Origin: an uncultured Candidatus Saccharibacteria bacterium
GTDB lineage: Bacteria; Patescibacteriota; WWE3; UBA101185; 2-01-FULL-41-18
DNA: 64,000 nt
Direction: 5' to 3'
NCBI GenBank assembly: GCA_964636285.1
Contig: CAZWQF010000004.1
Coordinates: 67,666-131,665 of the forward strand
Position numbers and translations under genes: made by a program. The notes under the pieces were generated by a model that saw only the letters and a program-made list of their open reading frames with translations, made no database searches and was not told the DNA's origin. Below are positions 19,101 through 38,342 of the stretch, one piece after another; positions within the stretch are counted from its first letter, which is position 1; each line of letters opens with the position of its first letter.

Positions 19101-22100
19101 GAATTCTAGGCGTAGTGTCGCCAAACACCAAATCAGAATCCCAACTTGCACCTATATATACACCGTATTCATTAGCCTGAAGGTCATCTATAGGAAGAGC
19201 ACCCAAATTAATCCCATATACATAGTTAGCGGATCCTGTATGGTTAACGTTTATTGGATCTATGTATAAATGATTAATTATGTTACTTCCAGATGCTGGG
19301 TTTATGCTTGATCCAGCCCCATCTACCATTAAAATAGATTGCTCTACTCCAGGGTTCATAACCTGTGATGAGGATCTAAATATAGACTCTAATGCGTTAG
19401 AAAGTATTAAATTTGACGAGGACGATGAGATATTGGGATAAGATGTGTCTGCACCAAAGTAAACTGACGCATCCTGCACACTCTCCCCAAATATAAATAG
19501 CTCATCATCAACTACTGCCTGATAAACACCATTTGTGTTCCTATCATCTTTAATTAACAAACTGCCCGTCTGTGTCTTAATAATAAAATCCCCGTCTGAA
19601 GCCTCTAGTGTTGTATGAGCTTCGCCAGCCACTCCAGTATTTGCCACCCTTACACTAAATGAGTCTGAATTAGCCGTAGTTAGATCTAGACCGTTTGAGG
19701 CAGTAACTCCAGTAATATCCAAATCCCCTCCTGTAACAACAGCGTCTCCTGTCAATGTTGTTGTACCTGTAGTAATGTTCAAAGTATTGTCACCAAAAGC
19801 AAATGTTGAATCTACTCCTGCAGAGGCATTAAATGTCCACGTTATTCCTGCTTCACTTCCAAACGTAGTAGTGCCTATCTCCGTAGTGTCAAGATTGATT
19901 GTTAATTGATCTGCAACTCCTGAAACATCAACATCAATGCCGTTGGTACCGCCATTAAATAAAACTGTGGCACCAGAAGCAATAAGCCTTGTCTCTGCAT
20001 CGTCTGATGAGTCAACTGTCCATCCTGAGTATCCACCTCCACCTATCTGAATGAATGATGTTCCGTTGTATACATAAAGGGCATCTCCTGAGGTATCGTA
20101 AACAACATCTCCTTCAACTGTCCCTGTAACTCCTGCTGGAGCTCCTGCGTTTGTAGGGAGATTAAGGCCTACGTTGTTGTTGTGAGGAGCTGTTTCAATT
20201 CTTCCGTCTGTAGTAATAGAACCAATGTTTGTTAAATCTCCTGTGGCTGAGATATCCCAATCGGATGTATTAACTTCCATAGTGTCCCCACCATCTCCAA
20301 GGATTACGCTTCCTCCTGGAGTTAGAGTGAATGCTCCAGTTGTTGTAAAGGTTGTTGAAGCTCCATCAAATGCTATGTTTGTATCGGCTATGGAAAGATC
20401 GCCGTTGGAATCTAGAGTTCCGTTTGCGGTTAATGCTCCAGTGGTCACGAGGGTGCTTGACACAGTTACCCCATCTGAGAACGTAAAAGAGGCTCCTGCG
20501 CCTGCTGCATCAAAAGTTACCGCACCATTGCTTGCAACCCCTTCTGTAACATAGTTTGAGCTATCATAAGCTACTCTAAATTGAGGGGATGTAACGCTTC
20601 TTACTTCAAGTTGATTAGAAGGAGCATCTGCTCCCGCACCTATTCCCGTTTGACCCTCAAAAAAATGGTAACCACTACCATCCGAATATATATTGTATTT
20701 ATCCGTAGTAGAAACACCTTGATCTTTAATCCTTAATCCATAATTATTCACAATTGTACCTGTAGAGTCAGGTGTCTCAATGACAACCCCGAAGGCATTT
20801 GTAATTGTAGCGTCAGAATTTGCAGACCAAATCTTTGTCATCAAACCTGTAGCGGTACCTAAGGTTGCAACAACAGCAGGGTCATAATAAATCCCTGCTT
20901 CCATGGACTGCATCTCAGCACCTGAAAGCCTATCTGCTGTTAAAGTTGTGTAAAGATTCGACTTGATGCCAATGTACTTCTCATTACTAATCCCACTAGG
21001 CCACACACTAGTGTCCACAAGCAAACTATTCTGCCAGTTAGTCGTATCTTCAAGGGAACCTGCCACGGTTACAACAGCAGCATTCGGTATGTTTTCAGCA
21101 ACACCACCAAAATATGCATTTCCTGTAAATTCTGCCCAACCATCAACCTCAAGGTTTCCTTCAATGTAAGCATCCTCTCCATCCAGCGCATTATCTGGAG
21201 TACCGTTCCCTAATTTAATATTTCCTGTAAGAACATTAAAAATGTCTGCGGTAGCACCAAGTGTTAAATCTGTTGAGTTTGAATCAAAGCCCAAAGTTGT
21301 ATCGGTTGCAGCGGAAGTACCAAATGTCCATACAAAATCCGATGTAGTTCCCCACGTAGTTGTCCCTATCTCAGTAGAATCAAAAGTGAGTGTCAATGTA
21401 TCTGTTAAACTTGTAGCGGTATCAATACCAACCCCTCCTGTAAACTCAGCGGTGTCATTAGCTGATATTGTCTGATCGCTACCTGAATCACCGGAAAGAG
21501 CCCAGGCAGAGTATGCCCCTCCTGCAACAGGAGTGAAAGTAGCACCATTGTAAACATATAGAACTCCTCCTGATGTATCCCAAACAAGATCCCCTGCTGC
21601 AGAACCTGTAACACCTACTGGAGCTCCAGCATTTGTTGGGATATTCAAACCAACTCCATTGTTATGACCTGCTGTTTCAATTCTTCCGTCTGTAGTAATA
21701 GAACCAATGTTTGTTAAGTCACCAGTTGCTGAGATATCCCAATCGGATGTATCAATAGCACCTGTATCTCCCCCATCTCCAAGTGTGAACACCCCATTCG
21801 CATCCAAAGTGCCATTTGCAGTGAGTGTTCCGTTAGCTGTTGTTGTACCTGCAATGGTCAAACCACCAGATGAATCAAAATCAGTTCCCGCATTTCCAAT
21901 ATTTTCAATAGTGTTTGCGTTCAAATTAATTCCTATTGTTGATCCAGTGACAATATTAACTGCTGTTGAGAGTCCTCCCCCAATATTTATTCCGGTTGTT
22001 ATCGCTCCAGCAGTCTCAGTGATATTAATAGCATTTGTTGTTGTTCCTGCACCAGTTTGATCAATTAAAATACCGTTTGTTCTTGTTCCAGAAGCGTTAG

Positions 22101-25100
22101 AGAGTGTAACCTGCACCCCTTCGCCTGTTCCTGCGTTCCCTACCTGAACTGTATCAACATTTCCGGTTGCAAGCTGGTCAAGATTTATCAGGTAGCCAGA
22201 GTCAGTGCCGGAAGCTGCTGGGTTTCTAAAGACAAGAGAATCATCATCTGACGAAAGAGTAATGACAGTTTCTGAACCGTCAGGATCATTTGAGTAACCT
22301 TGCTGTAATGTTGTTGAAGCGCCTGAAATGTTATTCCACGAACCGCTGTACCAAACTTTAACCTGGTTATCGTCAGTATCAAAAGCCAAAAAACCATCTC
22401 CACTTGAAGGCCCACTTGCCAAAGCAGCCTGCGGAAGCTTAAATCCAGAAATTGCATTAGTAGCGTGCGAAATAGCCGAAAGATCAAAAAATCCTGTTGA
22501 GCTTGTAAGGGATAAAACTGCTCCTGTTCCTGCAAGTGTTTGGTTGCCATCAAACCTAACCGAACCATCCACCTCTAATGTGCCTTCAATATAGCCATCC
22601 TCACCATCAAGTGAAACAGTTGGTGAGCCGTTACCAACTTTAAGATTTCCAGTCAGAACATTGAATAAATCAGTCGCAGCACCTGTTGTTAAATCAAGTG
22701 AGTTTGTATCAACCAAAAATGTTGCGTCAGTGCCTGCGCTTGAATCAAATGTCCAGGTAAAGTCGCTGTTAGCTCCAAACGTAGTTGTTCCAATCTCTGT
22801 AGTGTCAAGATTGATTGTAAGTGTGTCTGTGTTTGATGTAACCGTGTCTATCCCATTCGATCCACCCAAAATATTTGCCGAGTTACCGCTTGAAATTGTC
22901 TGGTTTGTTCCACCCGCGTCGCTTGCAAGAGTCCATGACTGGTAGTTATCAAATGTACTCGAAAGGGCTGTTGCGGCGTCAGTTGTAGTAATTCCTGTTA
23001 AATGACCGTATGTATCAAGAGTGATGTCCTGTATAAAACTTGTCCCCGAATTATCAACGCTTGTTTGTGCAGATGTGTCGTCGTGGTCAATTGTTAAAGT
23101 GTTTGTTAGTGCTGTATATGCTGATGTAAGGGCGTTTCCTCCTGAAATCACTAATGAATCGCCAGATGCAATTGATTCGGATACGGTTCCATCTGAAACT
23201 GTCCATCCTGAGTATCCACCTCCACCTATCTGAATGAATGATGTTCCGTTGTATACATAAAGGGCATCTCCTGAGGTATCGTAAACAACATCTCCTTCAA
23301 CTGTCCCTGTAACTCCTGCTGGAGCTCCTGCGTTTGTAGGGAGATTAAGGCCTACGTTGTTGTTGTGAGGAGCTGTTTCAATTCTTCCGTCTGTAGTAAT
23401 AGAACCAATGTTTGTTAAATCTCCTGTGGCTGAGATATCCCAATCGGATGTATTAACTTCCATAGTGTCCCCACCATCTCCAAGGATTACGCTTCCTCCT
23501 GGAGTTAGAGTGAATGCTCCAGTTGTTGTAAAGGTTGTTGAAGCTCCATCAAATGCTATGTTTGTATCGGCTATGGAGAGATCACCGTTGGAATCTAGAG
23601 TTCCGTTTGCGTTTAAAGTGCTAGTCACTGTTGCAGTACCGTCAAAATTTGCGGACACATTAATGTCTAAAACATCTGCATAAATATTATCCCAGGGCAA
23701 AGACGAACCTCCAAGATCATTTGTCCCTACAGTACCCACTGGGATAACATCAGAATCTTGGGCTACTCTGGCAGTTATTGTAACAATATCGCTAGTAGCG
23801 TTACCTAGTGTCGTATTACCGTTTGCTGTCAGATCAGCTGTTGCAGTGATATTAGAGGTAGCTGTGATTGAGCCAGCAGCCACAACATCCCCACTATTTG
23901 AAATTGTAAGAGAATCAGTCCCATCATACTGCTCAAACACTACAAGACCTGCTGTTTGCCCATTCACACCTTGGACTAAAAATTGAATTTGGTCAGCATC
24001 CCCATCAATTGAGAATTTTGATGACGAAAGTGGGGAGCTTCCACCAAGCACTAACTCATCTGTTGTGTCTGTTAAGTAAACAGTGCTTCCAGAATCTGTC
24101 CACTTTGAACCTCCTGCTCCGCCTGAACAGTTTCCAGAGCTTAAGCAAACGGTGCCTGTTTCGGCTGGCAGTGTAATAGTTGCATCTGCCAAAGCATCTT
24201 CTGAAGTTAATATAACTTCATAGTCATCTGCAGTCACACCCTCAAAATATAATGTATGTCCTTGAGTGCCATCAAAAGCTGCGCCGGAACCAATATTTCC
24301 AACCGCAGTAATATCTCCAACCCCTCCAATACCTGAAGGTGCTGTACATGTCCATGCTCCACCGCCTCCTGATACCCACATGAGTACTTCGGAGTCATTA
24401 CATCCTCCAAGTAGTCTTAGTCCTGATGCATCTGTTTCCAAACCTGAGTTTGATGACGCATTGAGAGTTACTCCTGTTGTGGTCGTATCAAGATCAATTT
24501 GATCAGATCCTGCGGTAAGTCCATTGCCAACTCCAACGGCTAAGGTTGCTGCTCCCCCTTCGCTTGATACATCTCCCGTTAAACCATTTCCTGCCGTGAT
24601 TGAAGCAACATAGTTACCTGTTGTATCTGTTCCAAGTGCTACTGCGTCTGCTGAGATAGTTAAGTTTCCATTCGTACTGTTGATAGTTGCATCCCCTCCT
24701 AATGTTCTAAAGATAGGAGCTGTGGAAGATACACCTACTAGAATCTGACCGTCTGTGCCGGCGGTTGTAGCACCAATTGCTGAAGCTCCATTTCCATAAA
24801 GTATTCCATTTGAGGTTAAGGTTGTTGCTCCTGTTCCACCATTCCCAACTCCAAGCGTTCCAGTAATGTCTGAGCTCGCAAGACCTACAGCACTTGCAGA
24901 TAAAGTTCCAGAGTTGGATTTAACAACACCAGTTCCTAACCCGCTAACAACAAGGCTTCCAAAAGTTCCAGAACCTGTAACAGAAACATCCCCAGAAAAA
25001 GAAACGTCCCCTGTTGAATCTACTACTAAGTATCCTGTAGACCCTGCATTGTTCGTGACACTAAAAACATTGGCACCGCCTGAAGGAGCTTGAGCAACCG

Positions 25101-26346
25101 AAAGACCAGTTACGTTTCCTGCAGTAGGCGTGATTACTTGATTAGTTGCAGGATCCATTAGAACACATGTAGGGCAGCTTCCACTTCCGGCGCTATTCCA
25201 TACTGGATTTCCTCCTGAAACGGTGAGAATCTGACCTGCAGTTCCTATTGGGAGTCTTGAAAGAGTGTTTGCAGAAGATGCATAAAGAATGTCCCCAGTT
25301 ACATAAGAGGTTAGGCCTGTGCCTCCAACTGTTGTACCCACAACTCCGCTGTTCACTGCATTTCCAGAAACACTTGCGCTAGAAGATAGTGTGATCTCAT
25401 CAGCAACATCAGCGTCTGTTATACAACTTGCGCAACCTCCATTGCTCCTAACGTCAGCAAGGTCAAGATTTTCAACGCTACTCAAATCAGCAGATATTGT
25501 TAACCCGTCTATTTGGATATTATCTCCAGCTTCTAGTTCAACATCGCCTTCCTCCCCCTGAAATGTTTTAACGCCCTCTGTTAAATCCCCTGAAAACGAA
25601 ATTGTAGGCGTCTGACCGGCAGTGATTGCCACATTTGTCCCAGCTACTAAACCGTAGATAACATTAGCAGCCGTTATACGACCAGTGCCAAGATTTAAAT
25701 TATACGAATCAGCATCTATATTTCCGTTAATCTCGACTTCGCCATCTAAAAGTGTTTTTCCTTTTACACTTAACCCCTGCTCAACACTAAGCCCAGCATT
25801 AAAATAAGCTGGTATCTGAAACGAAACTTTACCAAGTACTGCGTCCTCAGCAGTGCCTAGAATTGCATAATTGCCTTCAGTAAAGCCCTCAAGCTGAGCA
25901 GTCTCTTTACCAAGAAAAGCGTTTAGAAGCTGAAATGAACCAATGAACCCACTGATAAGTAGCACAAACATCCCAACGATATAAGCGTAAACAGCTCTTT
26001 TTGTAACACTTGTAAAGATTGATTTGGCGTTCCTGCCTGTTGAGATATAAGAGACTAGGTCTTCGTTTTTCTTTGGGTCATACTTGTCTAAGTACTCCTT
26101 GAACAAAGCGCTTTGCCCCGCTCTCTTTTTTGCTATATCAAATTTTCTCTCGACTGAATTTTGGGATAAATAAGATTTAAGTTTTTCTACCTCGGGTTTT
26201 TCGTAAAATCTATATCCAGACGCTCCATCCCTTTTAGACACAATTAAGCCCTCGGCTTCATACCTCCTAAGTGAGGATTTTGAAACTCCAAGAAACTCGG
26301 AGGCATCTTTAATTGATAACAGGTCTTGAGCAGGTACTTCGGGCAT
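10165..26346 (-). CDS. Giant (~5393 aa) cell-surface repeat protein with N-terminal cytoplasmic MerR/excisionase-like HTH, one TM helix, and a Thr/Ser/Gly-rich extracellular region
   Basis: One continuous 16-kb ORF. Start set at ATG 26346 (MPEVPAQDLL) because a TTGACA-16-TATACT promoter lies inside the ORF-track 5' extension. HTH: LSIKDASEFLGVSKSSLRRYEAEGLI. TM: AVYAYIVGMFVLLISGFIGSF. Several ~100-aa modules recur 3-4 times (DWDISATGDLTNIGSITTDGRIETA..., LRLPQANSFTNPTSGEGYLAWDADDNALYAY). A lectin-like region lies at ~11700-12300, a GRVPVK module at ~11160-11560, and a coiled-coil plus a C-terminal beta domain follow. Confidence 0.85.
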   Translation of the reverse strand: MPEVPAQDLLSIKDASEFLGVSKSSLRRYEAEGLIVSKRDGASGYRFYEKPEVEKLKSYLSQNSVERKFDIAKKRAGQSALFKEYLDKYDPKKNEDLVSYISTGRNAKSIFTSVTKRAVYAYIVGMFVLLISGFIGSFQLLNAFLGKETAQLEGFTEGNYAILGTAEDAVLGKVSFQIPAYFNAGLSVEQGLSVKGKTLLDGEVEINGNIDADSYNLNLGTGRITAANVIYGLVAGTNVAITAGQTPTISFSGDLTEGVKTFQGEEGDVELEAGDNIQIDGLTISADLSSVENLDLADVRSNGGCASCITDADVADEITLSSSASVSGNAVNSGVVGTTVGGTGLTSYVTGDILYASSANTLSRLPIGTAGQILTVSGGNPVWNSAGSGSCPTCVLMDPATNQVITPTAGNVTGLSVAQAPSGGANVFSVTNNAGSTGYLVVDSTGDVSFSGDVSVTGSGTFGSLVVSGLGTGVVKSNSGTLSASAVGLASSDITGTLGVGNGGTGATTLTSNGILYGNGASAIGATTAGTDGQILVGVSSTAPIFRTLGGDATINSTNGNLTISADAVALGTDTTGNYVASITAGNGLTGDVSSEGGAATLAVGVGNGLTAGSDQIDLDTTTTGVTLNASSNSGLETDASGLRLLGGCNDSEVLMWVSGGGGAWTCTAPSGIGGVGDITAVGNIGSGAAFDGTQGHTLYFEGVTADDYEVILTSEDALADATITLPAETGTVCLSSGNCSGGAGGSKWTDSGSTVYLTDTTDELVLGGSSPLSSSKFSIDGDADQIQFLVQGVNGQTAGLVVFEQYDGTDSLTISNSGDVVAAGSITATSNITATADLTANGNTTLGNATSDIVTITARVAQDSDVIPVGTVGTNDLGGSSLPWDNIYADVLDINVSANFDGTATVTSTLNANGTLDSNGDLSIADTNIAFDGASTTFTTTGAFTLTPGGSVILGDGGDTMEVNTSDWDISATGDLTNIGSITTDGRIETAPHNNNVGLNLPTNAGAPAGVTGTVEGDVVYDTSGDALYVYNGTSFIQIGGGGYSGWTVSDGTVSESIASGDSLVISGGNALTSAYTALTNTLTIDHDDTSAQTSVDNSGTSFIQDITLDTYGHLTGITTTDAATALSSTFDNYQSWTLASDAGGTNQTISSGNSANILGGSNGIDTVTSNTDTLTINLDTTEIGTTTFGANSDFTWTFDSSAGTDATFLVDTNSLDLTTGAATDLFNVLTGNLKVGNGSPTVSLDGEDGYIEGTLEVDGSVRFDGNQTLAGTGAVLSLTSSTGFFDLSAISHATNAISGFKLPQAALASGPSSGDGFLAFDTDDNQVKVWYSGSWNNISGASTTLQQGYSNDPDGSETVITLSSDDDSLVFRNPAASGTDSGYLINLDQLATGNVDTVQVGNAGTGEGVQVTLSNASGTRTNGILIDQTGAGTTTNAINITETAGAITTGINIGGGLSTAVNIVTGSTIGINLNANTIENIGNAGTDFDSSGGLTIAGTTTANGTLTANGTLDANGVFTLGDGGDTGAIDTSDWDISATGDLTNIGSITTDGRIETAGHNNGVGLNIPTNAGAPVGVTGSAAGDLVWDTSGGVLYVYNGATFTPVAGGAYSAWALSGDSGSDQTISANDTAEFTGGVGIDTATSLTDTLTLTFDSTEIGTTTWGTTSDFVWTFGTSAATDTTLGFDSNSTDLTLGATADIFNVLTGNIKLGNGTPDNALDGEDAYIEGNLEVDGWAEFTGNAYFGGVAENIPNAAVVTVAGSLEDTTNWQNSLLVDTSVWPSGISNEKYIGIKSNLYTTLTADRLSGAEMQSMEAGIYYDPAVVATLGTATGLMTKIWSANSDATITNAFGVVIETPDSTGTIVNNYGLRIKDQGVSTTDKYNIYSDGSGYHFFEGQTGIGAGADAPSNQLEVRSVTSPQFRVAYDSSNYVTEGVASNGAVTFDAAGAGASFTFSDGVTVSSTLVTTGALTANGTLDSNGDLSIADTNIAFDGASTTFTTTGAFTLTPGGSVILGDGGDTMEVNTSDWDISATGDLTNIGSITTDGRIETAPHNNNVGLNLPTNAGAPAGVTGTVEGDVVYDTSGDALYVYNGTSFIQIGGGGYSGWTVDSSDDAETRLIASGATVLFNGGTNGIDVDVSGVADQLTINLDTTEIGTTTFGSEAGITWTFNASAGVDSTFAFGDNTLNITTGTTTLTGDAVVTGGDLDITGVTASNGLDLTTANSDSFSVRVANTGVAGEAHTTLEASDGDFIIKTQTGSLLIKDDRNTNGVYQAVVDDELFIFGESVQDASVYFGADTSYPNISSSSSNLILSNALESIFRSSSQVMNPGVEQSILMVDGAGSSINPASGSNIINHLYIDPINVNHTGSANYVYGINLGALPIDDLQANEYGVYIGASWDSDLVFGDTTPRIQLANASTLTLYDGTQNLLTIADNGTAATLSLPNTGFIDLSAITHGSAANQGLRLPQANSFTNPTSGEGYLAWDADDNALYAYNGSSWQNVSGASTTLQNAYDNDADGSNSILALTSADDSLILRNPAASGTDSGYLMNLDQLATGAVDALQISNAGTGEALQVSLANVAGSTTNGALIEQTGAGTITNLLNLTRTAGTVTTGLNITGTMTNGIDLNANTVVNIGNSGTDFTSTGGLTLAGDLTSNGNTTIGNASGDTLTLNAATVTVANDTDFTLTGGINGLSFDGSTFSVDASSDRIGIGTAAPDYQLDVVNSAASMARIQTTGTSDVQQAALFLENSRGTLASYGGIFYGGTGYTSFDYFGLDRADKYFVVAGGASNLGMGVGTSTSQPLVLGTNNQERIRIEGAGDVGIGTTDPNNPLEVLSTTEPQFRLAYSTGAYAIFDVTNTGRLYIDTTAAVANSIEFAKGVTASSTLTTTGQLTANGAFVANGNVNLGSDSADVITVNGLIQTDNDLIPVGTTGVSDLGSSSTPWDNLYVNTVTQNGTTLANTYAPINSNFVTVTTNGTLTGETGIDNLTTAISTTSTLNVDSSSTLNAVTLDAGANFTMTSGAGAFTQTYTGTTTDAHTITAASLTSGSAVALNGPSGGTSGVTNGLVELTTDINDTGAALLISGTVDTTTALGYGDGIRVDLTNSPSTEANAVVGVNSNVTDSTTLANFLYGVSSTVTNSATSGSKGSATSGYFGIANSGAGSITTATGVYGSLLASSGSIGTAIGVQGRVSANGTGSISTSATGILSQIANTTTMPTVYGVRMDGWSNSGTVNTSYGLYMDTSIDVGSTGRYALYSTSTSNSYLVGNVGIGTGSSGTANKLEVRSTTSPQLRVAYDSTYYLTIGSAGSGTVTFDAAGSGAGFAFNDGITMAGTIVPDGNNYYALGSPTDAWAGVYGYDFRTGDTLIIDDGIDGANLTTFTANADGSLTLDSAGSSPRFIFSDAITASTSLTLSSVTGFLDLGAVTHASSANQGFRLPQANSFTNPTSGEGYLAWDADDNALYAYDGSSWVSVNGASTTLQQAYGNDAAGSDTIVALTSADDSLIFRNPAASGTDSAYLLNIDQLATGTQDALQISNAGTGELIQLSSSHTSGTKTNGILLDQSGAGTLTNGVNITNSAGALTNAITIGSGAQTITTALNIASTGVTTDIRLQNGETIDNNTDGTITLGGDVSIDGSLSIDPGSTKYSQLIAATDNLYYEGPTSHVFRNYITGSDFSGSQFISTLTIDGPEYSINIPMDGNDSQSGIYVNPPARDHTGTGNNVYGMYVNSITADPQAVGTGLYIGSNWDYEMYFAGTTPTMRIASGETFAINDGTQNLLTIADNGAAATLSLPNTGYIDLGSITYGSTASQGLRLPQAASFSNPSTGEGYLAYDSDDDRLYMYTSSGWTDVSGASTTFQQAYSNDADGSDATVTLSGTDDSIVFTNPSSSGTDSSFMMSLTQQAAGDIDTLRLSNSGTGNEIDLTSTTPSISIADTGTLTISDNTNSLLTLTDNSNSGLLSTGDLTLGLNDSSATITTADTDEALTIQPNGVGALNLTTTTGSQVFTSAVATTGTTSSSWVFSNNSLTSGTGAYFNSSSLTTGRLMDLTTGSANTLSTGTILNVMSQSTALTTATTGGSLGYFDWSPGSSATATGDLFRINIGSNGSTSGNLFNVTDNGTSLFSVSETGITSALPHSFTAAGDVSIAYDLQFTNQTASYIKSNAPLYLEAGESFESNDLTLRTFNAGSIVSDLTGTGNFEIYPSATSRTTEPVLTLSTASYVHTAAESARYLDLAFTDASTNTTGNSSTSGIYVAPTINTSGAGTKDVSSIEAASPTITGCASGACTISSLRASTIQSGAASTLVNNGIRVSAYGISAGTLNGLNVSSITPGAGTEYGVTLGSGWDANLYSVDTTTVFKIANGGTWTFEDDAATDGNDILVLSDVSASSNHVLSGDSDTGLVLSGMTVDLSTGTNEDLAITPNGSGDIRLNSDDDSYIWAIGSTNTTGDVIRADIGSSATTGSAILATGYSNSASANTGLIESFLTALPSISNYSTNMYLSTSVDESASSSSTISGLRNTVSSTQTISGLNMYGDYTTVTNSGLVDGGSKTLYGGYYSVSASNSYNTSTTNAYAGYFSASASQGSGSGTVNSYGVYVANGTSSTNGTSTKYGLYVAGQSGADTNYSAMFDTINSTTSNAATIAIGNRASTDTNNYTTLNVRNAGTGYFNLELVKGFINMQGMNTFQDDFMGRMLDTNNWQNPTATGAATCNFTFQTAVVNGVLRHTTGTTNPGACYTSTQATLTNGFYQRQNNPVFETSVKLGTDTNGSQRAFFGLSTAVPGSGSDTLTGAHAYIGKRAADTTWQCITSDGTTESVTSTGVDISTTTFQRLRVWLQNGTTPQVICSVDGTAVSKTTNIPGATTLMDIMLKTETSDTTSENNDIDYVRTWQDDPEPSSLTQANSQPSVLDGLAGGIDMTTTSDISEMYQRDIETYAEAKPGDVVSLNDNGQITLSSIESDRKLLGVISTDSSLIVGGGKFNSAAKVAISGRVPVKISPDSDPIVPGDYLTSSTTVGMAKKATKSGIMLGRAIEFWNPGDSKDRVLMVVSTNWASPDSMMTLTDGGSLTSEAYTKAEVDAKLSDIDRTLGVSNSKDEAQAIISGVATSLNEKIDSLSGRILALESQLSALESSNSAEALSTDVREGDNLSDEFATKDQATDLQSQIDSLKATLKILTGESFEATSSSELSESSESAELSASSSVKSLQVNEFARVLGDLRVAGQSFLSDLNVAGKLTVGLLTISDADQSISSIGTLKLQSDVLAGDLDIFNGKVVISNDGAITAVKLVADSVEAEEGVINSLSIEKLNVSQVSADDNVNQNAALGSAVIKAGSKSVKVTSNKLTSKSLVFVTSKDKPLSVAYKILSDNEFEVLIDASQSSDTTINWWLIN

Positions 26347-26387
26347 TATATTTTTGCGCCGTTGCGCTAAAATTTGGTGATACATTG

Positions 26388-26415
26388 AGTATAGAACCGC
26401 ACCAAAAAATGTCAA
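26388..26415 (-). promoter_or_regulatory. Sigma70-like promoter for the giant gene
   Basis: Minus strand: TTGACA (26415-26410), 16-nt spacer, TATACT (26393-26388), ~40 nt upstream of ATG 26346. Confidence 0.5.
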
Positions 26416-26579
26416 CAATTTAGTGTTATAGAATCAAGGTTTATAAATACTATGGGTACAAAATGAACTATGAAAAGTTAGGAATTTCTGAGAGGTAACT
26501 GAGATTTTTTTAAGGGTTTTTAATCTTGATGTGCGTACGGCTAGTCTCTAATTAAACATTAAACGTGGTGATTCAGGTG

Positions 26580-26972: not shown

Positions 26973-28463
26973 TTACGAACCCCTTTGTTCAGGCTGACCT
27001 CCCCGTATCTCTTTGTATTTTCCTTCGTAACTTTTAATTACTTCTTCCACTTTTTCGTTACCAAGCTCCACCCTAACCAAATCTATGGCATTTATTGCAT
27101 CATAGACGTCAGACTTGTTCTCAAGTTTGTAGTAAGCGTCACGCCAGAGAATGGCTTTTTCATACTCCCCAACTTCAGCTGCTTTTTTCTCTAGTTGTCT
27201 TATCATGTCTATGAAAGCAAGGTACACATTTTCTTTACCAGAAGTCTCAAGGGTCCTTTCCTTAAAAGGTATCCTTAGCACCCCATTTTGCTGAGATGCC
27301 ATATCTCTAATTTTTCCGCTTCTTTGCCAATCTAATGCTGTTGTAACAATCTTTTCGCAAAAATCTTGGCCTTTGTTTACCTCTTCTTGAGTTACATCAG
27401 GAATCCTTTTTAAAACCGAAAGAAGTTTGTAGGCCGCTTCGGTAATCATATCAAGTCCCCACCAAGGTTTGGCAGACGCCCACCAGTAGTGATCACTGGC
27501 AATACACTTGTCCATATCAGCTCTTATCTCAGAATATCCTGAAACAGATTCGTCTAATGCGTGTACTTTATTCAATACAAAATGTAGGAAGTCCCATTGC
27601 ATGGTATGGATTTCGTTGGCTGGATCTGACCATGACAAAAACTGAATATTACTGTCAATATCTTGCTTACTGCTTGCCCAGTTAGATGCTACTGGGCTGA
27701 TTTCCTCAACATTTGGATAAAGACCTATAAGCTCAGAGATCCCCACGAGCCTGTAAGCCTTTGAGGCAAGGATGTCCGACATAAGTTTTTCAAGGCCAGG
27801 CCTGTGGTGACCAAACGTCTCGCCATCCATAGCGGTAATAATGTAGTTTCCCGATCTAATTTCATGCTTCATCCCCTCAAACAGTGTGTCTCCTGATCTT
27901 GGGACCGCAGCCATGATTGTGTTACTGAGTCTCCTCTCCCTAAAGAATGCAAAGACATTAGAACCCTTTATCTTGTAGGTCTTTGAATAATCCACGGTAC
28001 CAACATTCCCGTCTTTGGCAATCTCATCTATTAGTAACCACTTGTACCCAAGCTCCTCAATAATTTTCTCAAGCCCAGGTTTGTAACCCATCTCAGGAGG
28101 AAAAAAGCCGACCGGTTTATAACCTTCGCCAAGAAAATATCTATTAGTGTCATAGTTTATCTTAATCTGTCTATATATTTCTTTCTCTGGTGTTAGTGGC
28201 AAGAAAGCGTGGAACTTGGCTGACCCAGTAAATTCAATTTGCCCGTTCGCGCCAAGCTCTCTCATTAAATCCAAAATGTCATGAAAACCATATTTATCTA
28301 AAAGCTCTGTCAAAGATGCGTTTATATTCAAGTTAATTTTTGCATGAGGATTTGCCTTCAAACTTGTAAGCAGTGGTCTATAGCTCTGCTTTACTACAGC
28401 CTCAATAATGTCTTTGTATTGATCCGCGGGTTGATAAATATGTAAAAAATTTGCCCAAACCAT
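26973..28463 (-). CDS. Glycoside hydrolase family 57 alpha-glucan enzyme (branching enzyme / 4-alpha-glucanotransferase-like)
   Basis: LHIYQP N-terminus, catalytic MDGETFGHH motif, 496 aa. Confidence 0.8.
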   Translation of the reverse strand: MVWANFLHIYQPADQYKDIIEAVVKQSYRPLLTSLKANPHAKINLNINASLTELLDKYGFHDILDLMRELGANGQIEFTGSAKFHAFLPLTPEKEIYRQIKINYDTNRYFLGEGYKPVGFFPPEMGYKPGLEKIIEELGYKWLLIDEIAKDGNVGTVDYSKTYKIKGSNVFAFFRERRLSNTIMAAVPRSGDTLFEGMKHEIRSGNYIITAMDGETFGHHRPGLEKLMSDILASKAYRLVGISELIGLYPNVEEISPVASNWASSKQDIDSNIQFLSWSDPANEIHTMQWDFLHFVLNKVHALDESVSGYSEIRADMDKCIASDHYWWASAKPWWGLDMITEAAYKLLSVLKRIPDVTQEEVNKGQDFCEKIVTTALDWQRSGKIRDMASQQNGVLRIPFKERTLETSGKENVYLAFIDMIRQLEKKAAEVGEYEKAILWRDAYYKLENKSDVYDAINAIDLVRVELGNEKVEEVIKSYEGKYKEIRGGQPEQRGS

Positions 28464-28491
28464 AAAAATTAGCAGGATAAAAAATTATTAA

Positions 28492-29781
28492 CTAATTGGA
28501 GGTCTTCAAAGCACCAAGAATGTTGTCCCTAAGGGTTTTAGCTTCCTTTATCACTCTTTCCTGATCTTTGGGAATTCTATCCACAACCTTCATCAAAATC
28601 TCCAAACTTCTTTTGATCATATTTAAATCATAATAAGGATTCTTGCAGGACCACCAGTACTTATCCGAATTTAAGGCTTTATCTAAAGAAACTCTGAGCT
28701 TTATCACATCTTTAACCTCATTGCTTAACTCCTGATTATTTGAAAGAAGGTTAAAATTCCAAACTGGTAGGTTATTTGCAGACTCTGGAAATGTAGCAAC
28801 CGAAGGATTGGCAAAAGCCGACTTCTCAAGCACATCCTTACAGTAATCAAGTAGCAATTTTTCAAACTGCATAAACTGCTCATGTAAAAAGTTACCCGAA
28901 ATATACCACCTAGGATATAAATTTCCCTGAGCAACATCCTCATCTGAAGCACCCCAGGAAGACTCTACAACTTTTGTTTCTTTCTTGGATCTAAATTCAT
29001 CAACAACTTCTGAGTAAGTTGCAAATGTAGAACCTTGCATCAAGACTTCGTCTACCAAATTCTCCAAAAGCTCTATACCCTCTTTGTTATGGTGCCCAAA
29101 AGTTTCTCCGTCAAGTGCTATAAAAACAAATTTGTGACCACAGGACTTAATATAGTTAAATCCTTCCATAAAGTCAGAAGGGTCTGCATCCCTCTTAAAT
29201 GCCAGTGAGAGGCTCAACGCTCTATTTCTAACAGCAAGGGCAACACTTGTTCCCTCGGCCTTGTGAATATGTGCTAGATCATAAGCAGTGCCCTTATCAA
29301 CGGCTACTTCATCCACGGCAACCCATTCGTAAGCAAGCTCATTTAGCACATTTACAACCTTGGTGCTAACAGACATTTCGGGAGGAAAAAATCCTTTAAT
29401 ACCTTTAATCATCAATGAAGGCTCCCCTTCAAACCCAGATGTCTTCCCAAGATAATAAGCAAGACCTCCTTCGTTTAAAATGATCTGCCTTTCAATCTCA
29501 GGCTCTTCAAATTTTGTTAAGATTGGGTGAAAAGCTCCTGAGCCAACAATTTCTACCCTACCTGCAGCAACAAGACTTTTAATCTCAGGCATAAATGTCT
29601 CAATTTTTTCTTTTTCAAACCATTCAAGAAGGCTGAGTGGAACATTAAGTGTAAGTTTAAGATCTTTCTTTGCTCTTAGAAGCTTTAAAAGTGGCAAGTA
29701 TGATGACTTAGCAATCTCGTGCACAACGTGCGCGTTCTGCTGAGGCGGTTGATAAAGGTGTAGGAGCAATGCAACTTTCAT
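28492..29781 (-). CDS. Second GH57 paralog
   Basis: LHLYQPPQQ N-terminus, ALDGETFGHH motif, 429 aa. Confidence 0.8.
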   Translation of the reverse strand: MKVALLLHLYQPPQQNAHVVHEIAKSSYLPLLKLLRAKKDLKLTLNVPLSLLEWFEKEKIETFMPEIKSLVAAGRVEIVGSGAFHPILTKFEEPEIERQIILNEGGLAYYLGKTSGFEGEPSLMIKGIKGFFPPEMSVSTKVVNVLNELAYEWVAVDEVAVDKGTAYDLAHIHKAEGTSVALAVRNRALSLSLAFKRDADPSDFMEGFNYIKSCGHKFVFIALDGETFGHHNKEGIELLENLVDEVLMQGSTFATYSEVVDEFRSKKETKVVESSWGASDEDVAQGNLYPRWYISGNFLHEQFMQFEKLLLDYCKDVLEKSAFANPSVATFPESANNLPVWNFNLLSNNQELSNEVKDVIKLRVSLDKALNSDKYWWSCKNPYYDLNMIKRSLEILMKVVDRIPKDQERVIKEAKTLRDNILGALKTSN

Positions 29782-29808
29782 AACGGCTTTTTTGTATCTC
29801 AGATGTAA

Positions 29809-31407
29809 CTAAAGACCTGATGTGTGATAAATTTCTGGCACTCTCTGCTTAAAATCTATCGATTTATTATATATCCTAACATAATCCTTTGCACTTCTAG
29901 ACCACGAATAATCTTTTTGCATTGCGTTTACCTGAATCTGTCTCCAAACTTCCTTATGCCTGTAGGTCTCTACTGCTCGAACAAGCTGGCCATAAAAAGA
30001 AATTACGTTAAAGTCCTCGAATACAAAACCTGTTCCTGTTTTTGTCTCCGGGTCAAAGTCTTCAACCGTATCAGAAAGACCTCCAACTTTTCTTACAATT
30101 GGAATTGCACCGTACCTCATGGCTTCAAGCTGAACAATTCCGCAAGGCTCAAATCTTGAAGGGTACAAAATCATATCGCATCCCGAAAAAAGCATTCGTG
30201 GGAGAGTAAAGTTAGGCATTGTATGAACTCCTACGTTTTTTGGAAATGTTGCTTTGAGCTCTCGAGCCTTACCTGCAATACCTGTATCTCCTCCACCAAC
30301 TAATACAAACTGAACTCCAAATTCTCTGATAAGGTAACCTACCCCTTCGAGAACTAAATCTATGCCCTTTTGGAAATCAAGCCTACCTACAAACCCAAGC
30401 ATTGGAGTTGTCTCAGATACTTTCAGATCAAATTCTTTTTGAAGCGCAAGTTTGTTAGCAACTCTATTATCAAGAGTGCTAATGTCATAGTTCTTCTCTA
30501 TCAGTGGGTCACTTGATGGATTAAAGACTTCATAGTCTATTCCGTTTAACACACCATAAAGCTTTCCCCTAACTTCGGTTAAAAGCTTATCAAGCCCTTC
30601 GCCATATTGAGGCGTTAAAACTTCTCTAGAATAGGTTGGCGAAACAGTGACAAGCAAATCCGAATAGATAATTCCCCTCTTCATGAAGTTCTGCTTTGCA
30701 AGAGTGTCGCTAAAAAATGGTGCAATTGGAGACTTTCCATCATCAAAATCAAGCTCGCTTATGTTTCTTGGATCAAACATACCTTGATAGCTTAAATTGT
30801 GAATTGCAAGAATTGTAGAAATCTTTGAAAGCACGGGGTCGTGTGTGTATTCGGTTTTCAAATAATTTGGGAGGACTGCTGTGTGCCAGTCATTCACATG
30901 AATAACCTGAGGAATAAAGGTCTTTGTATCAGAGTCTAAAGCCTCATCTATGTGCTTCAAGAACTCAAGGGCACCTCTAGATAAAAGAACCCATCTTGTA
31001 GGATCATCGCTGTATCCATATACATTAGCTCTTTTCTCATAGTATTCCATGTTTTCCAAAAAATAGTTTGTAACACCATTTTTTAGCTTGTGCATTTTTA
31101 CATTACAGATAAGCTCTGGGGTTGAATGATCCCCTGTTGGAACTCTAAGCCCTTTAAGAACCATCTTTGTTTTAAATTTTTCCTCATCAAGAAATCCAAA
31201 TTTTGGAGTAAAAACTCGCACGTCATGACCAAGACTGACAAGTTCGGCTGAAAGAGACTCTATTACTCTTGAGAAACCGCCAACGGCAGCAAAAGGTGCA
31301 ACTTCAGCGGCCACTATCAATATTTTTAATGGGTTTGCTTCCTGATTTAATGGGGACTGTTTCAATACCACGTATAGATTGTAACTCAAAAACAAAAATA
31401 TTGACAA
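29809..31407 (-). CDS. Second GlgA-like alpha-glucan synthase (GT5/GT4), start uncertain
   Basis: LKILIVAAEVAPFAAVGGFS matches the GlgA N-terminus. No in-frame ATG near the 5' end; likely a GTG start around 31350. Confidence 0.75.
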   Translation of the reverse strand: MSIFLFLSYNLYVVLKQSPLNQEANPLKILIVAAEVAPFAAVGGFSRVIESLSAELVSLGHDVRVFTPKFGFLDEEKFKTKMVLKGLRVPTGDHSTPELICNVKMHKLKNGVTNYFLENMEYYEKRANVYGYSDDPTRWVLLSRGALEFLKHIDEALDSDTKTFIPQVIHVNDWHTAVLPNYLKTEYTHDPVLSKISTILAIHNLSYQGMFDPRNISELDFDDGKSPIAPFFSDTLAKQNFMKRGIIYSDLLVTVSPTYSREVLTPQYGEGLDKLLTEVRGKLYGVLNGIDYEVFNPSSDPLIEKNYDISTLDNRVANKLALQKEFDLKVSETTPMLGFVGRLDFQKGIDLVLEGVGYLIREFGVQFVLVGGGDTGIAGKARELKATFPKNVGVHTMPNFTLPRMLFSGCDMILYPSRFEPCGIVQLEAMRYGAIPIVRKVGGLSDTVEDFDPETKTGTGFVFEDFNVISFYGQLVRAVETYRHKEVWRQIQVNAMQKDYSWSRSAKDYVRIYNKSIDFKQRVPEIYHTSGL

Positions 31408-31437
31408 TAAAGTACTAAGTGCATTAGAGTAAACATA

Positions 31438-32112
31438 GTACGCTTTGAGAATCCGCTTTCATTAAGCGGTAAGGAGACAGCCATAGTACATGGAGTACTC
31501 ATTAGAAGCTCTTAGGCAGATACTCTTAAGATAAGATTTTTTTCACTGCCCTAGCCTGAAAGCCTCGTGATGATTATCGGCCCGGACTGCACCACGGTTC
31601 CAATTTTGGTGTGCTCCACATCCATGAGCTCGTTGAAACTTGAATAGCCTAAATCTGCAAATACTCAGAGGAAAAGCACTGTCCGATTTTTTAGTCAGTG
31701 TCCCCTCGCCCCAAATCCACGTCGCGTACCTTATCCTTCAGGCATAACTGGTATGATGACAAGTTTGGTCAAAGTATAGTCAGGAGAGGAGAGCTCTTTT
31801 GTAGCTGGATAGCTACTTAAAGCCCCCTAGCGGCACAGGTATATATTCATTCCCTAGAAAATTCTTTCATTTGGCAGTCAAATGTTGTTACTGTTAATTT
31901 GGTTGGTTTATCTTTTCACATCAAGTAAAGCATTTGGATTCGGCCCTATTTGGTATCCCAAGGCACGGTTAATTGTAAAAGCATGTATGCATTTGGTTTG
32001 ATTCGGTACATCCGGGTCCTAAGAGTCATGTTGAATCACAGTTTATGTAAGTTTCTACAACCAAAGTCAATTTTCCGTTTATGAGTGTGACCCCCGCGAG
32101 GGGGCTTTTTTC
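31438..32112 (+). ncRNA. Candidate ~680-nt non-coding RNA of unknown class
   Basis: No ORF of 60 aa or more on either strand across 780 bp, and GC is locally raised to ~45%. A plus-strand TTGACA (31401-31406) with an 18-nt spacer and TAGAGT (31425-31430) sits upstream. A plus-strand intrinsic terminator CCCCC-gcga-GGGGG then TTTTTT lies at 32091-32112. Only short ORFs (39 aa or less) lacking SD sites are present. Confidence 0.35.
32089..32112 (+). terminator. Plus-strand intrinsic terminator with no annotated plus-strand gene upstream
   Basis: GC stem followed by a U6 run on the plus strand only; the minus-strand reading lacks a U-run. Confidence 0.6.
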
Positions 32113-32187
32113 GTGCTTATTTTTGTATACATTTTGGAAAATTACTAGGTATGGAGCATTTAATGCGCAGATGAGGTACAGCAAAAA

Positions 32188-34086
32188 CTAGCTTTGAACC
32201 ATGTCAAGTTCGCCTGCCAACTCGTCCTCCCCACCATCAAGAAGATCTTTTCTAAGCCTCACAAGCGATACAACTTTAAGACCGTGCATTTCTTTTACAG
32301 TCTCAAAAATCACTTTATCGTCAGAGACAATAAGGCAAAGCTGAGCAGCATCTCTTTCACAAGGTTTAAGCTGAAGTGACTTTTCAAAAAATCCCCTGTG
32401 CTCGGGCTTTACATACGCATGAAGTATAGAGAAAGGTCGGATAGATTTATAAAGAGACATGCCAGCGTACATAGTGAAACAGTAAGGAATCATGGATGTG
32501 TTAGCAGACTTGTTAAGAGAGTGCGCAAGTTCTTTGAGACCTGACAAGCCACTTGTGTAGTAATTAAAAACACCATCACTTTTTTCAGGAGTTTTTATTT
32601 CCTGGGGCTTTTCAACTGGCTGAACTGGTTGTGCGGGTCTAATTTCAGAAACTCGTGCTGTTGCAGGCTGATACACCACTTCAGGTCTGGGCTCAGGTCT
32701 TACCTCCTGCTGAGGCGCTTGAGCTGGCTCTGGTCTTGGCTCAGGCTTATATTCAACCCTAGGCTCGGGCCTCTGAACTGGCGGAACCTGAGGTTGTTGA
32801 ACCTGCTGGGATGACTGAACCTGAGGTTGCTGAACAAACTGCGGAATCTGATTTGCCGAAACAGGTTGAGGTACAGGCTGTGGTTGCGCCTGCTGTGCAT
32901 ACCTTTGAGCCAAAGCCTCCCTATCCTGTTTAACTTTCATTTCCCATGTCATTTGATTTGTCATTGCGGGTTCCGTGTTTTGTGGACCCACTGGAGCTGT
33001 TGCCTGAGCCTGCTGCTGGGGGGTCTGACCAACCTGTGAAGCCTGGACGGGCTGACCTTGTTGACCCATCTCTGCCTTTGACTTCTCAAGTTCTGCCTTT
33101 GCAGCCTTAAACCTTGCTAACCAATCTACGGCAACTGGTTTTTCCTCTACAGGAGGCTGGGGTACAAAAGCAGGTTGCGGCTGTTGAACCACCTGCGGTT
33201 GTGTCTGAGGTTGATAAGGCATTTGCTGTGCTTGAGGCATCTGTGGCATAGGCTGAACCGTAGCCTGATACTGCGGGACGCGCTGGTAACCCTGTTGATC
33301 GTATGGATAAGCTCCAGAATTTGGCATTTGAGCGAATGGGGTGGGCTGACCAAAGTTCTGCGCAGGATTATGCATAGGGTTCTGCATAGAATTTTGACCC
33401 TGATCGTGCTTCAAAAAGTCCATAGGTTCATCCATATCCTGACCTCCCGTAGTCTGCTGAGCAAAAGGCGGAACCTGATGCGTAGGATTCATTGTTGGAG
33501 GCACCGCTGGAAACACTGGCTGAGAAACTCCCTGCCTGCTAAGTCTTGCTTTTTGAGCCTCTCTAAATTTGGCTAACCAATCAATAGGCTCTTCTGGTTG
33601 AGCATTCGGTTGAGGTACTTGCTGGGAAATTGGCTGGGAGCCTACTTGTGAGTAAGGACGTGCAACTGGCGAAGCAAAACCTTGATTCGTCTGACCAATA
33701 GGATTCAAGGGCTCTAGGTAATCCGATTCTTTGTAACTTGCGGCTTTACTTGCAATGTCACTTACTTTTGCTCCTGTCTGAGGTCTTACAAAATCTTCTT
33801 TTACCAATTCATGATCTGTCCTGCTGTCTACCTCAACTCTTAAATCTGTCTCAAAAGGCTTACTTCTATCTTGGGAATCCGGATATAAAAATTCTAAAAT
33901 GTTATTTTTTGAAAATCTGTGCCTTCCAGTTGCTGTTTTAATATCTGCTTTAAGGCTACCCTCTTCAAGGTATCTATAAACAGATCTTAGGCTTACCCCA
34001 AGTATATCGGCAACTTCAGTGCTTGAATAAAGTCTATCTTCAAGATTCATAGTTCCCAATGTGACATAAGTTGAAAATGATGTCAA
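32188..34086 (-). CDS. HTH (MerR/excisionase-like) protein with long Pro/Gln-rich disordered region and a C-terminal globular domain
   Basis: N-terminal STEVADILGVSLRSVYRYLEEGSLKADIKTATGRHRFSKNNI is the same HTH type as in the giant proteins. Duplicated motif PIDWLAKFREAQKARL (~33570-33600) and VAVDWLARFKAAKAEL (~33105-33145). No TM. Confidence 0.7.
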   Translation of the reverse strand: MTSFSTYVTLGTMNLEDRLYSSTEVADILGVSLRSVYRYLEEGSLKADIKTATGRHRFSKNNILEFLYPDSQDRSKPFETDLRVEVDSRTDHELVKEDFVRPQTGAKVSDIASKAASYKESDYLEPLNPIGQTNQGFASPVARPYSQVGSQPISQQVPQPNAQPEEPIDWLAKFREAQKARLSRQGVSQPVFPAVPPTMNPTHQVPPFAQQTTGGQDMDEPMDFLKHDQGQNSMQNPMHNPAQNFGQPTPFAQMPNSGAYPYDQQGYQRVPQYQATVQPMPQMPQAQQMPYQPQTQPQVVQQPQPAFVPQPPVEEKPVAVDWLARFKAAKAELEKSKAEMGQQGQPVQASQVGQTPQQQAQATAPVGPQNTEPAMTNQMTWEMKVKQDREALAQRYAQQAQPQPVPQPVSANQIPQFVQQPQVQSSQQVQQPQVPPVQRPEPRVEYKPEPRPEPAQAPQQEVRPEPRPEVVYQPATARVSEIRPAQPVQPVEKPQEIKTPEKSDGVFNYYTSGLSGLKELAHSLNKSANTSMIPYCFTMYAGMSLYKSIRPFSILHAYVKPEHRGFFEKSLQLKPCERDAAQLCLIVSDDKVIFETVKEMHGLKVVSLVRLRKDLLDGGEDELAGELDMVQS

Positions 34087-38266: not shown

Positions 38267-38342
38267 TGGTCGGAGTGTCCGGACTTGAACCGGAAACCTC
38301 TGCTTCCCGAAAGCAGCGCGCTACCAATTGCGCTACACCCCG
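38267..38342 (-). tRNA. tRNA-Pro (anticodon CGG), CCA encoded
   Basis: Reverse complement folds as a 76-nt cloverleaf with a 7-bp acceptor stem (CGGGGTG/CACTCCG). D-arm is GCGC-AATTGGTA-GCGC and the anticodon arm is CTGCT-TTCGGGA-AGCAG. T-arm is TCCGG-TTCAAGT-CCGGA, followed by discriminator A and CCA. Confidence 0.85.

Follow-up and report, generated by a model that had tools for sequence, protein, structure and literature searches.

In the 64,000-nt stretch of DNA analysed here (called the window; positions 67,666 to 131,665 of contig CAZWQF010000004.1, forward strand, from an uncultured Candidatus Saccharibacteria bacterium of the WWE3 lineage), a gap poor in open reading frames (ORFs) separates two genes of the minus strand, and it probably contains the gene of a structured non-coding RNA (ncRNA) which is read from the plus strand. 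On one side lies glgA, followed by two GH57 genes in a glycogen cluster (glgA-GH57-GH57, 26973-31371, minus strand), and on the other side, upstream of glgA, lies a HTH_17/MerR-like gene (32188-34086, minus strand). As a mechanical ORF, glgA covers 29809-31407 (minus strand, start TTG 31407), and the true start is probably GTG 31371 or TTG 31365. The gap, counted from the HTH_17 stop (32188) to the likely glgA start, is therefore window 31372-32187, about 816 nt instead of the 780 bp given in a first-pass annotation, which was made from the sequence alone and had proposed a large ncRNA at 31438-32112. The claim that the region is free of ORFs holds: the longest ORF of the gap in all frames has 52 aa (32026-32184, minus strand), and within 31438-32112 the longest has 44 aa. 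The elevated GC content (about 45%) is also found, with a maximum of 45.3% at 31500-31799, while the flanks have about 36-42% and the window as a whole about 40%. The rise is modest, and the GC level of the gap is coding-like, not that of an AT-rich spacer.

To place the gap among related genomes, we used GlgA as the anchor. The best GlgA matches, with 71% and 69% identity, come from two metagenome-assembled genomes (MAGs) of Patescibacteria / candidate division WWE3, and scans of genomes and metagenomes gave no GlgA closer than 71% identity. Beside the two MAGs, six contigs were obtained through GlgA homologues at 64-70% identity. All eight related loci share the gene order MreB - WecG - HTH_17 - gap - glgA - GH57 - GH57, and in the nine genomes the gap between HTH_17 and glgA is ORF-poor and 400-860 nt long. 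In the window and the eight related genomes the element is antisense to both HTH_17 and glgA. The gap of one related locus, L001, matches that of the window directly (nhmmer E = 1.5e-7), and a profile of the conserved core described below finds all close copies (type 1) with E-values from 1e-20 to 6e-29 and no other convincing match in 1.5 Mb. For the window core, nhmmer gives E = 1e-22 and the covariance model R1 gives 69.6 bits (E = 2e-13), with a single copy in the window. R1 scores 57-94 bits on the eight seed copies and weakly on L169 (14.3 bits, E = 0.037). Since R1 holds N-padded columns, it is strong on type 1 copies only. The mean column identity of the homologues is 39% over the full length and 66% in the core (alignment A3), and the value of 39% argues against recent horizontal copies of one sequence. 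Each copy keeps the same order of parts: promoter, variable 5' domain, core, variable hairpin, purine-rich block, GCCCCC(G/U), variable segment and terminator.

The promoter of the predicted RNA gene is located at 31401-31430 (plus strand), with a -35 box TTGACA (31401-31406), an 18-nt spacer and a -10 box TAGAGT (31425-31430). The TTGACA-18-TAGAGT element reported earlier on the plus strand is thus present, and it agrees with 10 of 12 consensus positions in a consensus scan. Promoter-like sites are not enriched in the region (4 versus 3.2 expected from shuffles, which is not significant alone), and the exact pattern occurs once in the 64 kb with 0.06 expected. What's more, it is conserved at the homologous loci: 8 of the 9 copies keep TTGACA-18-TAGAGT, and the remaining one, L169, has TTGACA-17-TAAAGT. 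All nine copies carry AGUAC 6 nt past the -10 box, in the fuller form T(T)TAGAGTA, six bases, AGUAC(A/G)C. With its ends placed from the conserved promoter and terminator, the predicted transcript would cover 31437-32112 of the plus strand (about 676 nt), from AGUACGC at 6 nt past the -10 box to the U-tract.

The neighbouring glgA gene has a promoter of its own on the minus strand (31407-31378, TTGTCA-18-TACAAT), which is conserved in L001 and L004 (alignment A1). Its -35 box overlaps that of the RNA promoter, so that the two form a divergent back-to-back pair. The first-pass annotation had allowed that the whole region might be a long 5' untranslated region or promoter region of glgA; this is excluded, because glgA has its own conserved promoter within about 10 nt of its likely start codon. 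The overlap of the -35 boxes occurs in the window, L001, L004 and L162 and suggests coupled or competing initiation. It is not constant in the family, since the two promoters lie 200-530 nt apart in L163, L164 and L165, and having been lost there it can't be the conserved function. In L163, a called 91-aa ORF without Pfam hit (2633-2908, on the glgA strand) is located between the RNA promoter and glgA and sets the two promoters about 530 nt apart. Besides, glgA itself is seemingly leaderless or almost so: its likely starts follow about 7-13 nt after the conserved -10 box TACAAT (31383-31378), the mechanical start TTG 31407 falls within its own -35 box, and the homologue in L091 has a matching layout (TAGAAT, 9 nt, ATG).

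At the 3' side, an intrinsic terminator occupies 32091-32112 (plus strand), with a local hairpin CCCCC-GCGA-GGGGG followed by CUUUUUU. On the minus strand the sequence past this hairpin reads TCACACTCAT and has no T-run, and the terminator was rightly described as acting on the plus strand only. Every homologue has, in like orientation, a GC hairpin whose tail is rich in U or in pyrimidines, and at every locus the gene that comes next is convergent. The 3' strand of the terminator (32099-32108) doubles as the 3' strand of a terminal stem, whose 5' strand is AAAGCCCCCUAGCGG (31819-31833, plus strand) and pairs with 32094-32108. The two segments, 31819-31833 and 32094-32108, make a 15-nt inverted repeat with 93% complementarity, which also appears in the full-length minimum free energy (MFE) fold of the window copy. 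The terminator 3' strand can thus find a local partner in the adjacent CCCCC run (4-6 bp) or a long-range partner in the upstream GCCCCC block, and the latter pairing runs over 7-10 contiguous bp in each of the eight sequences compared. Examples of the long-range helix are AGCCCCCU/AGGGGGCU in the window, GGCCCCU/AGGGGCC in L162 and AACCCCCG/CGGGGGUU in L004. For seven 3' domains in a plain MAFFT alignment (A7), RNAalifold chose the long-range helix, with changes on both sides in 4 of its 8 pairs. A terminator/anti-terminator test showed two partners for the 3' strand, each of which places a GC helix before the U-tract. From these sequences the RNA would end in a long stem with a GC-rich base and then the U-tract, and transcription should end with either pairing, local or long-range.

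The conserved core of the element (31620-31763, plus strand, 144 nt) consists of three hairpins, B, C and D, and its length is 138-144 nt across the eight homologues. Hairpin B (31627-31649) has a short stem AGCU/AGCC and a conserved 15-nt loop, CGUUGAAACUUGAAU, with the family motif GCWCNUUNANA...AAUAGCC. Hairpin C (31668-31707) is built from an outer helix GAGG/CCUC, an internal loop, an inner helix CACUG/CAGUG and a 14-nt apical loop, for which the family consensus is UCUGCUUUUGCAAU. Hairpin D (31721-31760) has a helix of about 12 bp between the conserved (A)CCACG (31716-31721) on its 5' side and GACA on its 3' side, and its loop carries a C-U-U-C-R-G-G-C-A-A motif of the CUUCGGCAA type. 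Further downstream, a purine-rich block resembling a Shine-Dalgarno sequence (31782-31793, plus strand) reads AGGAGAGGAGAG and has the family consensus AAGGAGAG; it is present in all type 1 homologues, and no start codon follows it. In front of the core lies the variable 5' domain (31437-31619, plus strand), in which AGUACGC (31437-31443), a local hairpin CCGCUU/AAGCGG (31454-31469) and the segment GGAGUACUC (31492-31500) are conserved; the last of these is able to pair with the GUAC at the 5' end. Pseudoknots between the B loop and the C loop, the purine block and the D loop, and the purine block and the linker were inspected by hand, and none is claimed because the complementarity is A-rich/U-rich or inconsistent between sequences.

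We then compared the homologues for covariation, as had been proposed, and covarying helices were found. When the cores were folded one by one, hairpins C and D appeared in the MFE folds of all nine sequences and the short hairpin B in most. RNAalifold predicted hairpin D from the unedited MAFFT alignment (A3) and recovered the inner hairpin C from a plain MAFFT alignment. To count substitutions, eight sequences were hand-fitted to the three-hairpin model, with gaps written as N so that the tool kept the alignment (A4). In A4, 94.1% of the cells are standard pairs and 17 of the 32 pairs show changes on both sides; none of 500 shuffles reached any of the five measures, and controls with slid partners were 34-45% paired. 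Helices 2 and 3 of hairpin C are 98% and 100% paired, and 11 of their 15 pairs change on both sides, while hairpin D is 92.6% paired with 5 double-change pairs. These A4 figures are an upper bound, since the alignment was fitted to the structure. The signal doesn't come from the fitting alone, because the predictions from unfitted alignments show it too.

The window copy is much longer than its relatives. The conserved part of the predicted RNA is about 300 of about 675 nt, the rest being two insertions specific to this genome, and this refines the earlier proposal of a large ncRNA. Insertion 1 (31500-31612, plus strand, about 110 nt) is located in the 5' domain, which has 202 nt in the window copy versus 81-105 nt in the eight homologues, and it is absent from all eight. 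Insertion 2 (about 31845-32090, plus strand, about 245 nt) occupies the apical part of the terminal stem, whose strands are about 35-50 nt apart in most homologues; L001 and L165 differ in their 3' domains. No other copy of either insertion was found in the window or the loci searched, and no tandem or array repeats were found in the region. The homologous copies have about 300-440 nt, and the window RNA minus both insertions has about 320 nt, like L162, L163 and L164. The length of about 675 nt is due to the two private insertions.

To see whether the element belongs to a known class, we searched the 4227 families of Rfam 15, as the first-pass annotation had advised, with the window at gathering score, a 951-nt region at E <= 10 with permissive filters, and 10 related loci at E <= 1. 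It turned out that the element matches no known family in the window, the region or the 10 related loci, and only tRNAs and noise were returned. In the region at E <= 10, the matches were isrD (E = 6.5), which covers the terminator only, and sR53 (E = 9.7), both far below their gathering scores. The models of RNase P RNA (RF00010 and RF00011) gave no match even at E <= 10, and none in the related loci. This negative at permissive thresholds matters because diverged RNase P RNAs of the candidate phyla radiation (CPR), which lack helices and fall below the Rfam thresholds, were recovered by lowering the thresholds (PMC8172020). ARAGORN found no transfer-messenger RNA (tmRNA), nor its tRNA-like domain, in the window or 168 loci. 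The earlier statement that the element could not be assigned to RNase P, tmRNA, the signal recognition particle (SRP) RNA or 6S RNA is therefore borne out by both Rfam and ARAGORN. Literature searches on structured RNAs of CPR or WWE3 bacteria and on RNAs divergent from glgA gave no description of the element.

Several known RNAs resemble the element in part. RNase P RNA has a similar conserved size, and the opposite strand carries AGUCCGGGC and then UAGGGCAG, which recall its conserved region I (CR-I), but the P4-type long-range pairing of conserved regions was not found in the element. The first-pass annotation had pointed to this minus-strand likeness. The string, the only one like CR-I, is really there (about 31551-31588), but the resemblance is coincidental: it lies within insertion 1, which is specific to the window and missing from the eight homologues, so we regard it as a chance match. 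With tmRNA the element shares a startless short frame that ends in a conserved UAA/UAG within a hairpin loop, several hairpins after it and a similar size range, but the tRNA-like domain, the acceptor stem with its CCA and the T-arm of tmRNA are all missing. For want of the tRNA-like domain, and because the variation is not codon-like, we rejected the B motif as a tmRNA feature. 6S RNA is a rod, whereas the element folds into separate hairpins in a row and gave no RF00013-type match. In one more distant locus, L002, a weak 6S match was seen (12132-12298, 24.5 bits, E = 0.6, below gathering score), which adjoins a tRNA cluster away from glgA and hints that 6S RNA is encoded elsewhere in these genomes.

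The position beside the glycogen synthase gene recalls the CsrB/RsmZ sponge RNAs, regulators of glycogen genes in Proteobacteria: both are stand-alone rows of hairpins ended by a terminator, and within the AAGGAGAG block of the element one finds A(N)GGA, the core of CsrA sites. CsrB carries roughly one GGA per 20 nt. In the element the hairpin loops bear other motifs, and each RNA contains 3-8 GGA, about one per 100 nt, which equals the shuffle expectation in all nine RNAs. Since GGA is not enriched, a CsrB-type sponge was rejected despite the glycogen neighbourhood; no csrA gene was seen. The element also resembles the OLE, GOLLD, ROOL, HEARO and raiA-motif RNAs, which are likewise long, have covarying helices and sequence-conserved loops and junctions, occur in one lineage, tolerate large insertions in peripheral stems and encode no protein. 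It differs from them in that it matches none of their Rfam models, bears other conserved motifs, is found in CPR/WWE3 genomes and shows no association with their typical proteins or phage contexts. A phage origin was rejected: two pattern scans of IMG/VR gave 16 and 29 hits, for which R1 reached at best 19 bits or less, as expected from chance matches, and the two hits inspected both lack hairpins C and D. Riboswitches and attenuators also combine a compact conserved fold with a terminator whose 3' strand has alternative partners, but the element has its own promoter and no co-oriented downstream gene in the nine loci, and no known aptamer class matches it. The family is narrowly distributed and new to Rfam 15, and its kind is known, that of lineage-restricted structured bacterial ncRNAs.

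Beyond the nine close copies, the B motif was found 150-300 nt upstream of glgA and antisense to it in at least 11 more distant WWE3-like loci (L002, L003, L010, L011, L019, L041, L084, L088, L091, L094 and L113). This clustering is not due to chance, because the regular expression for the motif hits only about once per 100 kb elsewhere. The distant loci also have a TTGACA promoter, a C-like hairpin (with the loop UCCUGGCAUUGCCAAC in L091) and a GC-based terminal stem followed by a U-tract. By position, orientation and motif only, these RNAs are probable relatives of the type 1 family, and they are not taken as proven members because R1 gives them 21 bits or less. Other WWE3-like MAGs also have, upstream of glgA and antisense to it, compact RNA-like elements of 190-270 nt, all on the minus strand of the locus (L088 827-1053, L091 3701-3879, L094 3661-3879, L084 1147-1411 and L041 5635-5874). 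In these elements, which have no Rfam match, the B motif (GGCACUUUUAGAACUUAAUAACC) is enclosed by a GGAGG...CCUCC helix, and they also carry a TTGACA promoter, a C-like hairpin, a conserved CCCCUCUUUAGAAC block and a GC terminator.

Taken together, conserved signals, covarying helices and the lack of a conserved ORF support the proposal that a large ncRNA is encoded on the plus strand together with a promoter and terminator of its own. We consider that the element is a stand-alone structured ncRNA gene on the plus strand, of a family not in Rfam and most likely trans-acting, with a probability of about 0.7. Its transcription would start at about 31437 from the near-consensus sigma-70-type promoter and stop at the GC-rich stem and U-tract at 32091-32112. 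The functional part would be about 300 nt and comprise a short 5' element, the B-C-D core, the purine-rich single-stranded block and a terminal stem that is also the terminator, while the insertions would protrude from the 5' domain and the tip of the terminal stem and leave the core undisturbed. Such an RNA could form a discrete stable particle and work in trans as a scaffold or regulatory RNA, in which the unpaired loops of B, C and D, the CUUCAAAAACUU linker and the AAGGAGAG block might be presented to a protein or RNA partner. The action in trans and the link to glycogen metabolism are both inferred. As for pairing with the glgA leader, inspection of the glgA 5' regions gave only a same-sense similarity (UUGAAAC) and no conserved complementarity. 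A bolder view, which we hold as doubtful, is that the 140-nt core, with its invariant nucleotides in junctions and loops, is the active centre of a new class of functional RNA confined to Katanobacteria (WWE3), within a much wider glycogen-linked family that includes the B-motif RNAs; if true, the class might be ligand-binding, catalytic or the RNA subunit of a ribonucleoprotein.

Several points weigh against this interpretation. Transcription and the RNA ends are deduced solely from consensus signals, and a trans-acting mode is what one would assume by default. The close members number nine, the main covariation count comes from the alignment that was fitted to the structure, and related sequences may outdo shuffles even without structure. 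RNAalifold yields no consensus fold for the 5' domain. G-U cells (9) versus A-C cells (6) leave the strand undecided on their own, and the thermodynamic stability is unremarkable: the MFE z-score of the whole RNA is -1.17 on the plus strand (-0.67 on the minus strand), and those of the cores lie between +0.12 and -3.85 and average about -1.6. Taken one by one, none of the sequence features first described in the region would be significant. Besides, a sister clade (L170-L172, GlgA about 62% identical) with like gene order (WecG - HTH_17 - glgA, on one strand, with 30-130 nt between HTH_17 and glgA) has no element at this position, so it must be dispensable there or encoded elsewhere.

Among other explanations, the element might act in cis, either as a riboswitch- or attenuator-like sensor whose terminal stem decides antisense read-through into the convergent HTH_17 gene, or simply as a strong antisense transcription unit that keeps transcription of HTH_17 from running on into glgA or interferes with the glgA promoter by competition. 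The core is indeed aptamer-like in its constant length, conserved junctions and loops and covarying helices, and the terminator 3' strand has alternative partners (local 4-6 bp, long-range 7-15 bp), but neither 3' conformation is an obvious anti-terminator, as a GC helix precedes the U-tract in both, and no locus has a same-strand ORF downstream. For a role in cis speak also the terminator, which lies 11-76 nt from the convergent HTH_17 stop in every type 1 locus, the -35 boxes overlapping in the window, L001, L004 and L162, and the sister clade, where without the element HTH_17 and glgA are on the same strand and only 30-130 nt apart. However, the overlap is missing in L163, L164 and L165, the distant RNA relatives adjoin a different convergent gene, and pure interference wouldn't require a conserved covarying fold of 140 nt. 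Because there is no obvious anti-terminator structure and interference needs no conserved fold, we rate a role in cis below one in trans and think it unlikely. Still less probable is a housekeeping RNA (RNase P, tmRNA, 6S or SRP) so extremely diverged that it escapes the Rfam models. For this the diverged CPR RNase P RNAs below the thresholds set a precedent (PMC8172020), and the conserved size of about 300 nt, the single copy in the window and the strong conserved promoter would fit, as would the B loop, which recalls helix 5 of tmRNA by its invariable UAA or UAG end within a hairpin loop. Yet none of the four RNAs was matched at E <= 10 in the 951-nt region or at E <= 1 in the homologous regions of the 10 loci, ARAGORN was negative for a tRNA-like domain, the hairpins stand in a row without a 6S-type rod, and the element is missing at the locus in the sister clade. 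Compared with the E. coli RNAs, none of its conserved blocks is known to resemble CR-I or CR-V of RNase P, helix 8 of SRP RNA, or the acceptor and T-arm of tmRNA.

The element might instead be an mRNA, or a dual-function RNA, for a very small peptide, read from the 7-codon frame AUG AGC UCG UUG AAA CUU GAA UAG (31624-31647) or from a startless tag-like frame. The B motif of about 20 sequences would translate as (S/G/C)-(S/T)-(L/F)-K-x-x-stop, where "codons" 2 and 3 vary at the third position and a conserved UAA or UAG closes the frame, and AUG occurs in 3 of the 8 type 1 copies compared (window, L163 and L161). Most copies, however, have neither a start codon nor a suitably spaced Shine-Dalgarno sequence, and the variation follows a non-coding pattern, with "codon 4" being A-N-A (third base fixed, middle free) and "codon 1" varying at its first base. 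The frame upstream of the motif is not conserved between L088 and L091, and an all-against-all comparison of ORFs of at least 12 aa in the nine RNAs gave no conserved peptide on either strand, which leaves this reading slightly less probable even than that of a housekeeping RNA. Least probable of all is non-functional DNA, that is, a decayed gene remnant or a spacer with chance signals. The promoter scan of the region that is not enriched over shuffles, the weak MFE z-scores and the unique unconserved insertion that makes up about half of the window copy would agree with it. But nine genomes with GlgA 64-71% identical keep the promoter, its spacing, the start motif, the core length, the loops and the terminal stem, the helices show compensatory substitutions, and there is no protein-coding signal. 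From this pattern of conservation the non-functional reading appears already largely refuted, and the stand-alone, most likely trans-acting ncRNA is preferred.

The CPR/Patescibacteria account for a large part of the diversity of bacteria and have tiny genomes. To our knowledge, almost none of their regulatory RNAs has been studied experimentally. A conserved and strongly promoted structured RNA of 300-675 nt outside all 4227 Rfam families would be among the few lineage-specific ncRNAs defined in the CPR and among the longer bacterial ncRNAs, and a gene kept in a genome of about 1 Mb suggests a real function, for which its fixed place beside the glycogen synthase cluster offers a starting hypothesis. 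The nine-member alignment and the motifs of B, C and D can seed a covariance model for CPR metagenomes and metatranscriptomes, in which the RNase P-like string can be set aside as a false lead.

Some other features of the window were also noted. The HTH_17 gene has 50-54% GC at 32550-33600 (minus strand) versus 40% elsewhere; this GC-rich part encodes a low-complexity linker rich in Q and P, about 400 aa long, which joins the N-terminal HTH_17 domain to a globular part at the C-terminus, and as the homologues have 302-632 aa, the linker grows and shrinks among genomes. A second starch/glycogen-synthase-like gene (8624-10066, 480 aa, minus strand) adjoins a GalT/HIT-like gene (7521-8621) and stands apart from the glgA-GH57-GH57 cluster. 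Two giant ORFs, one of 5417 aa (10165-26418, minus strand) and one of 2152 aa (45766-52224, plus strand) with a Laminin_G_3/ConA-like domain, are akin to the very large surface proteins of CPR genomes. The sole Rfam or ARAGORN match in the 64-kb window is tRNA-Pro(CGG) (38267-38342, minus strand), which is located between a sortase gene and a series of ORFs without Pfam match.

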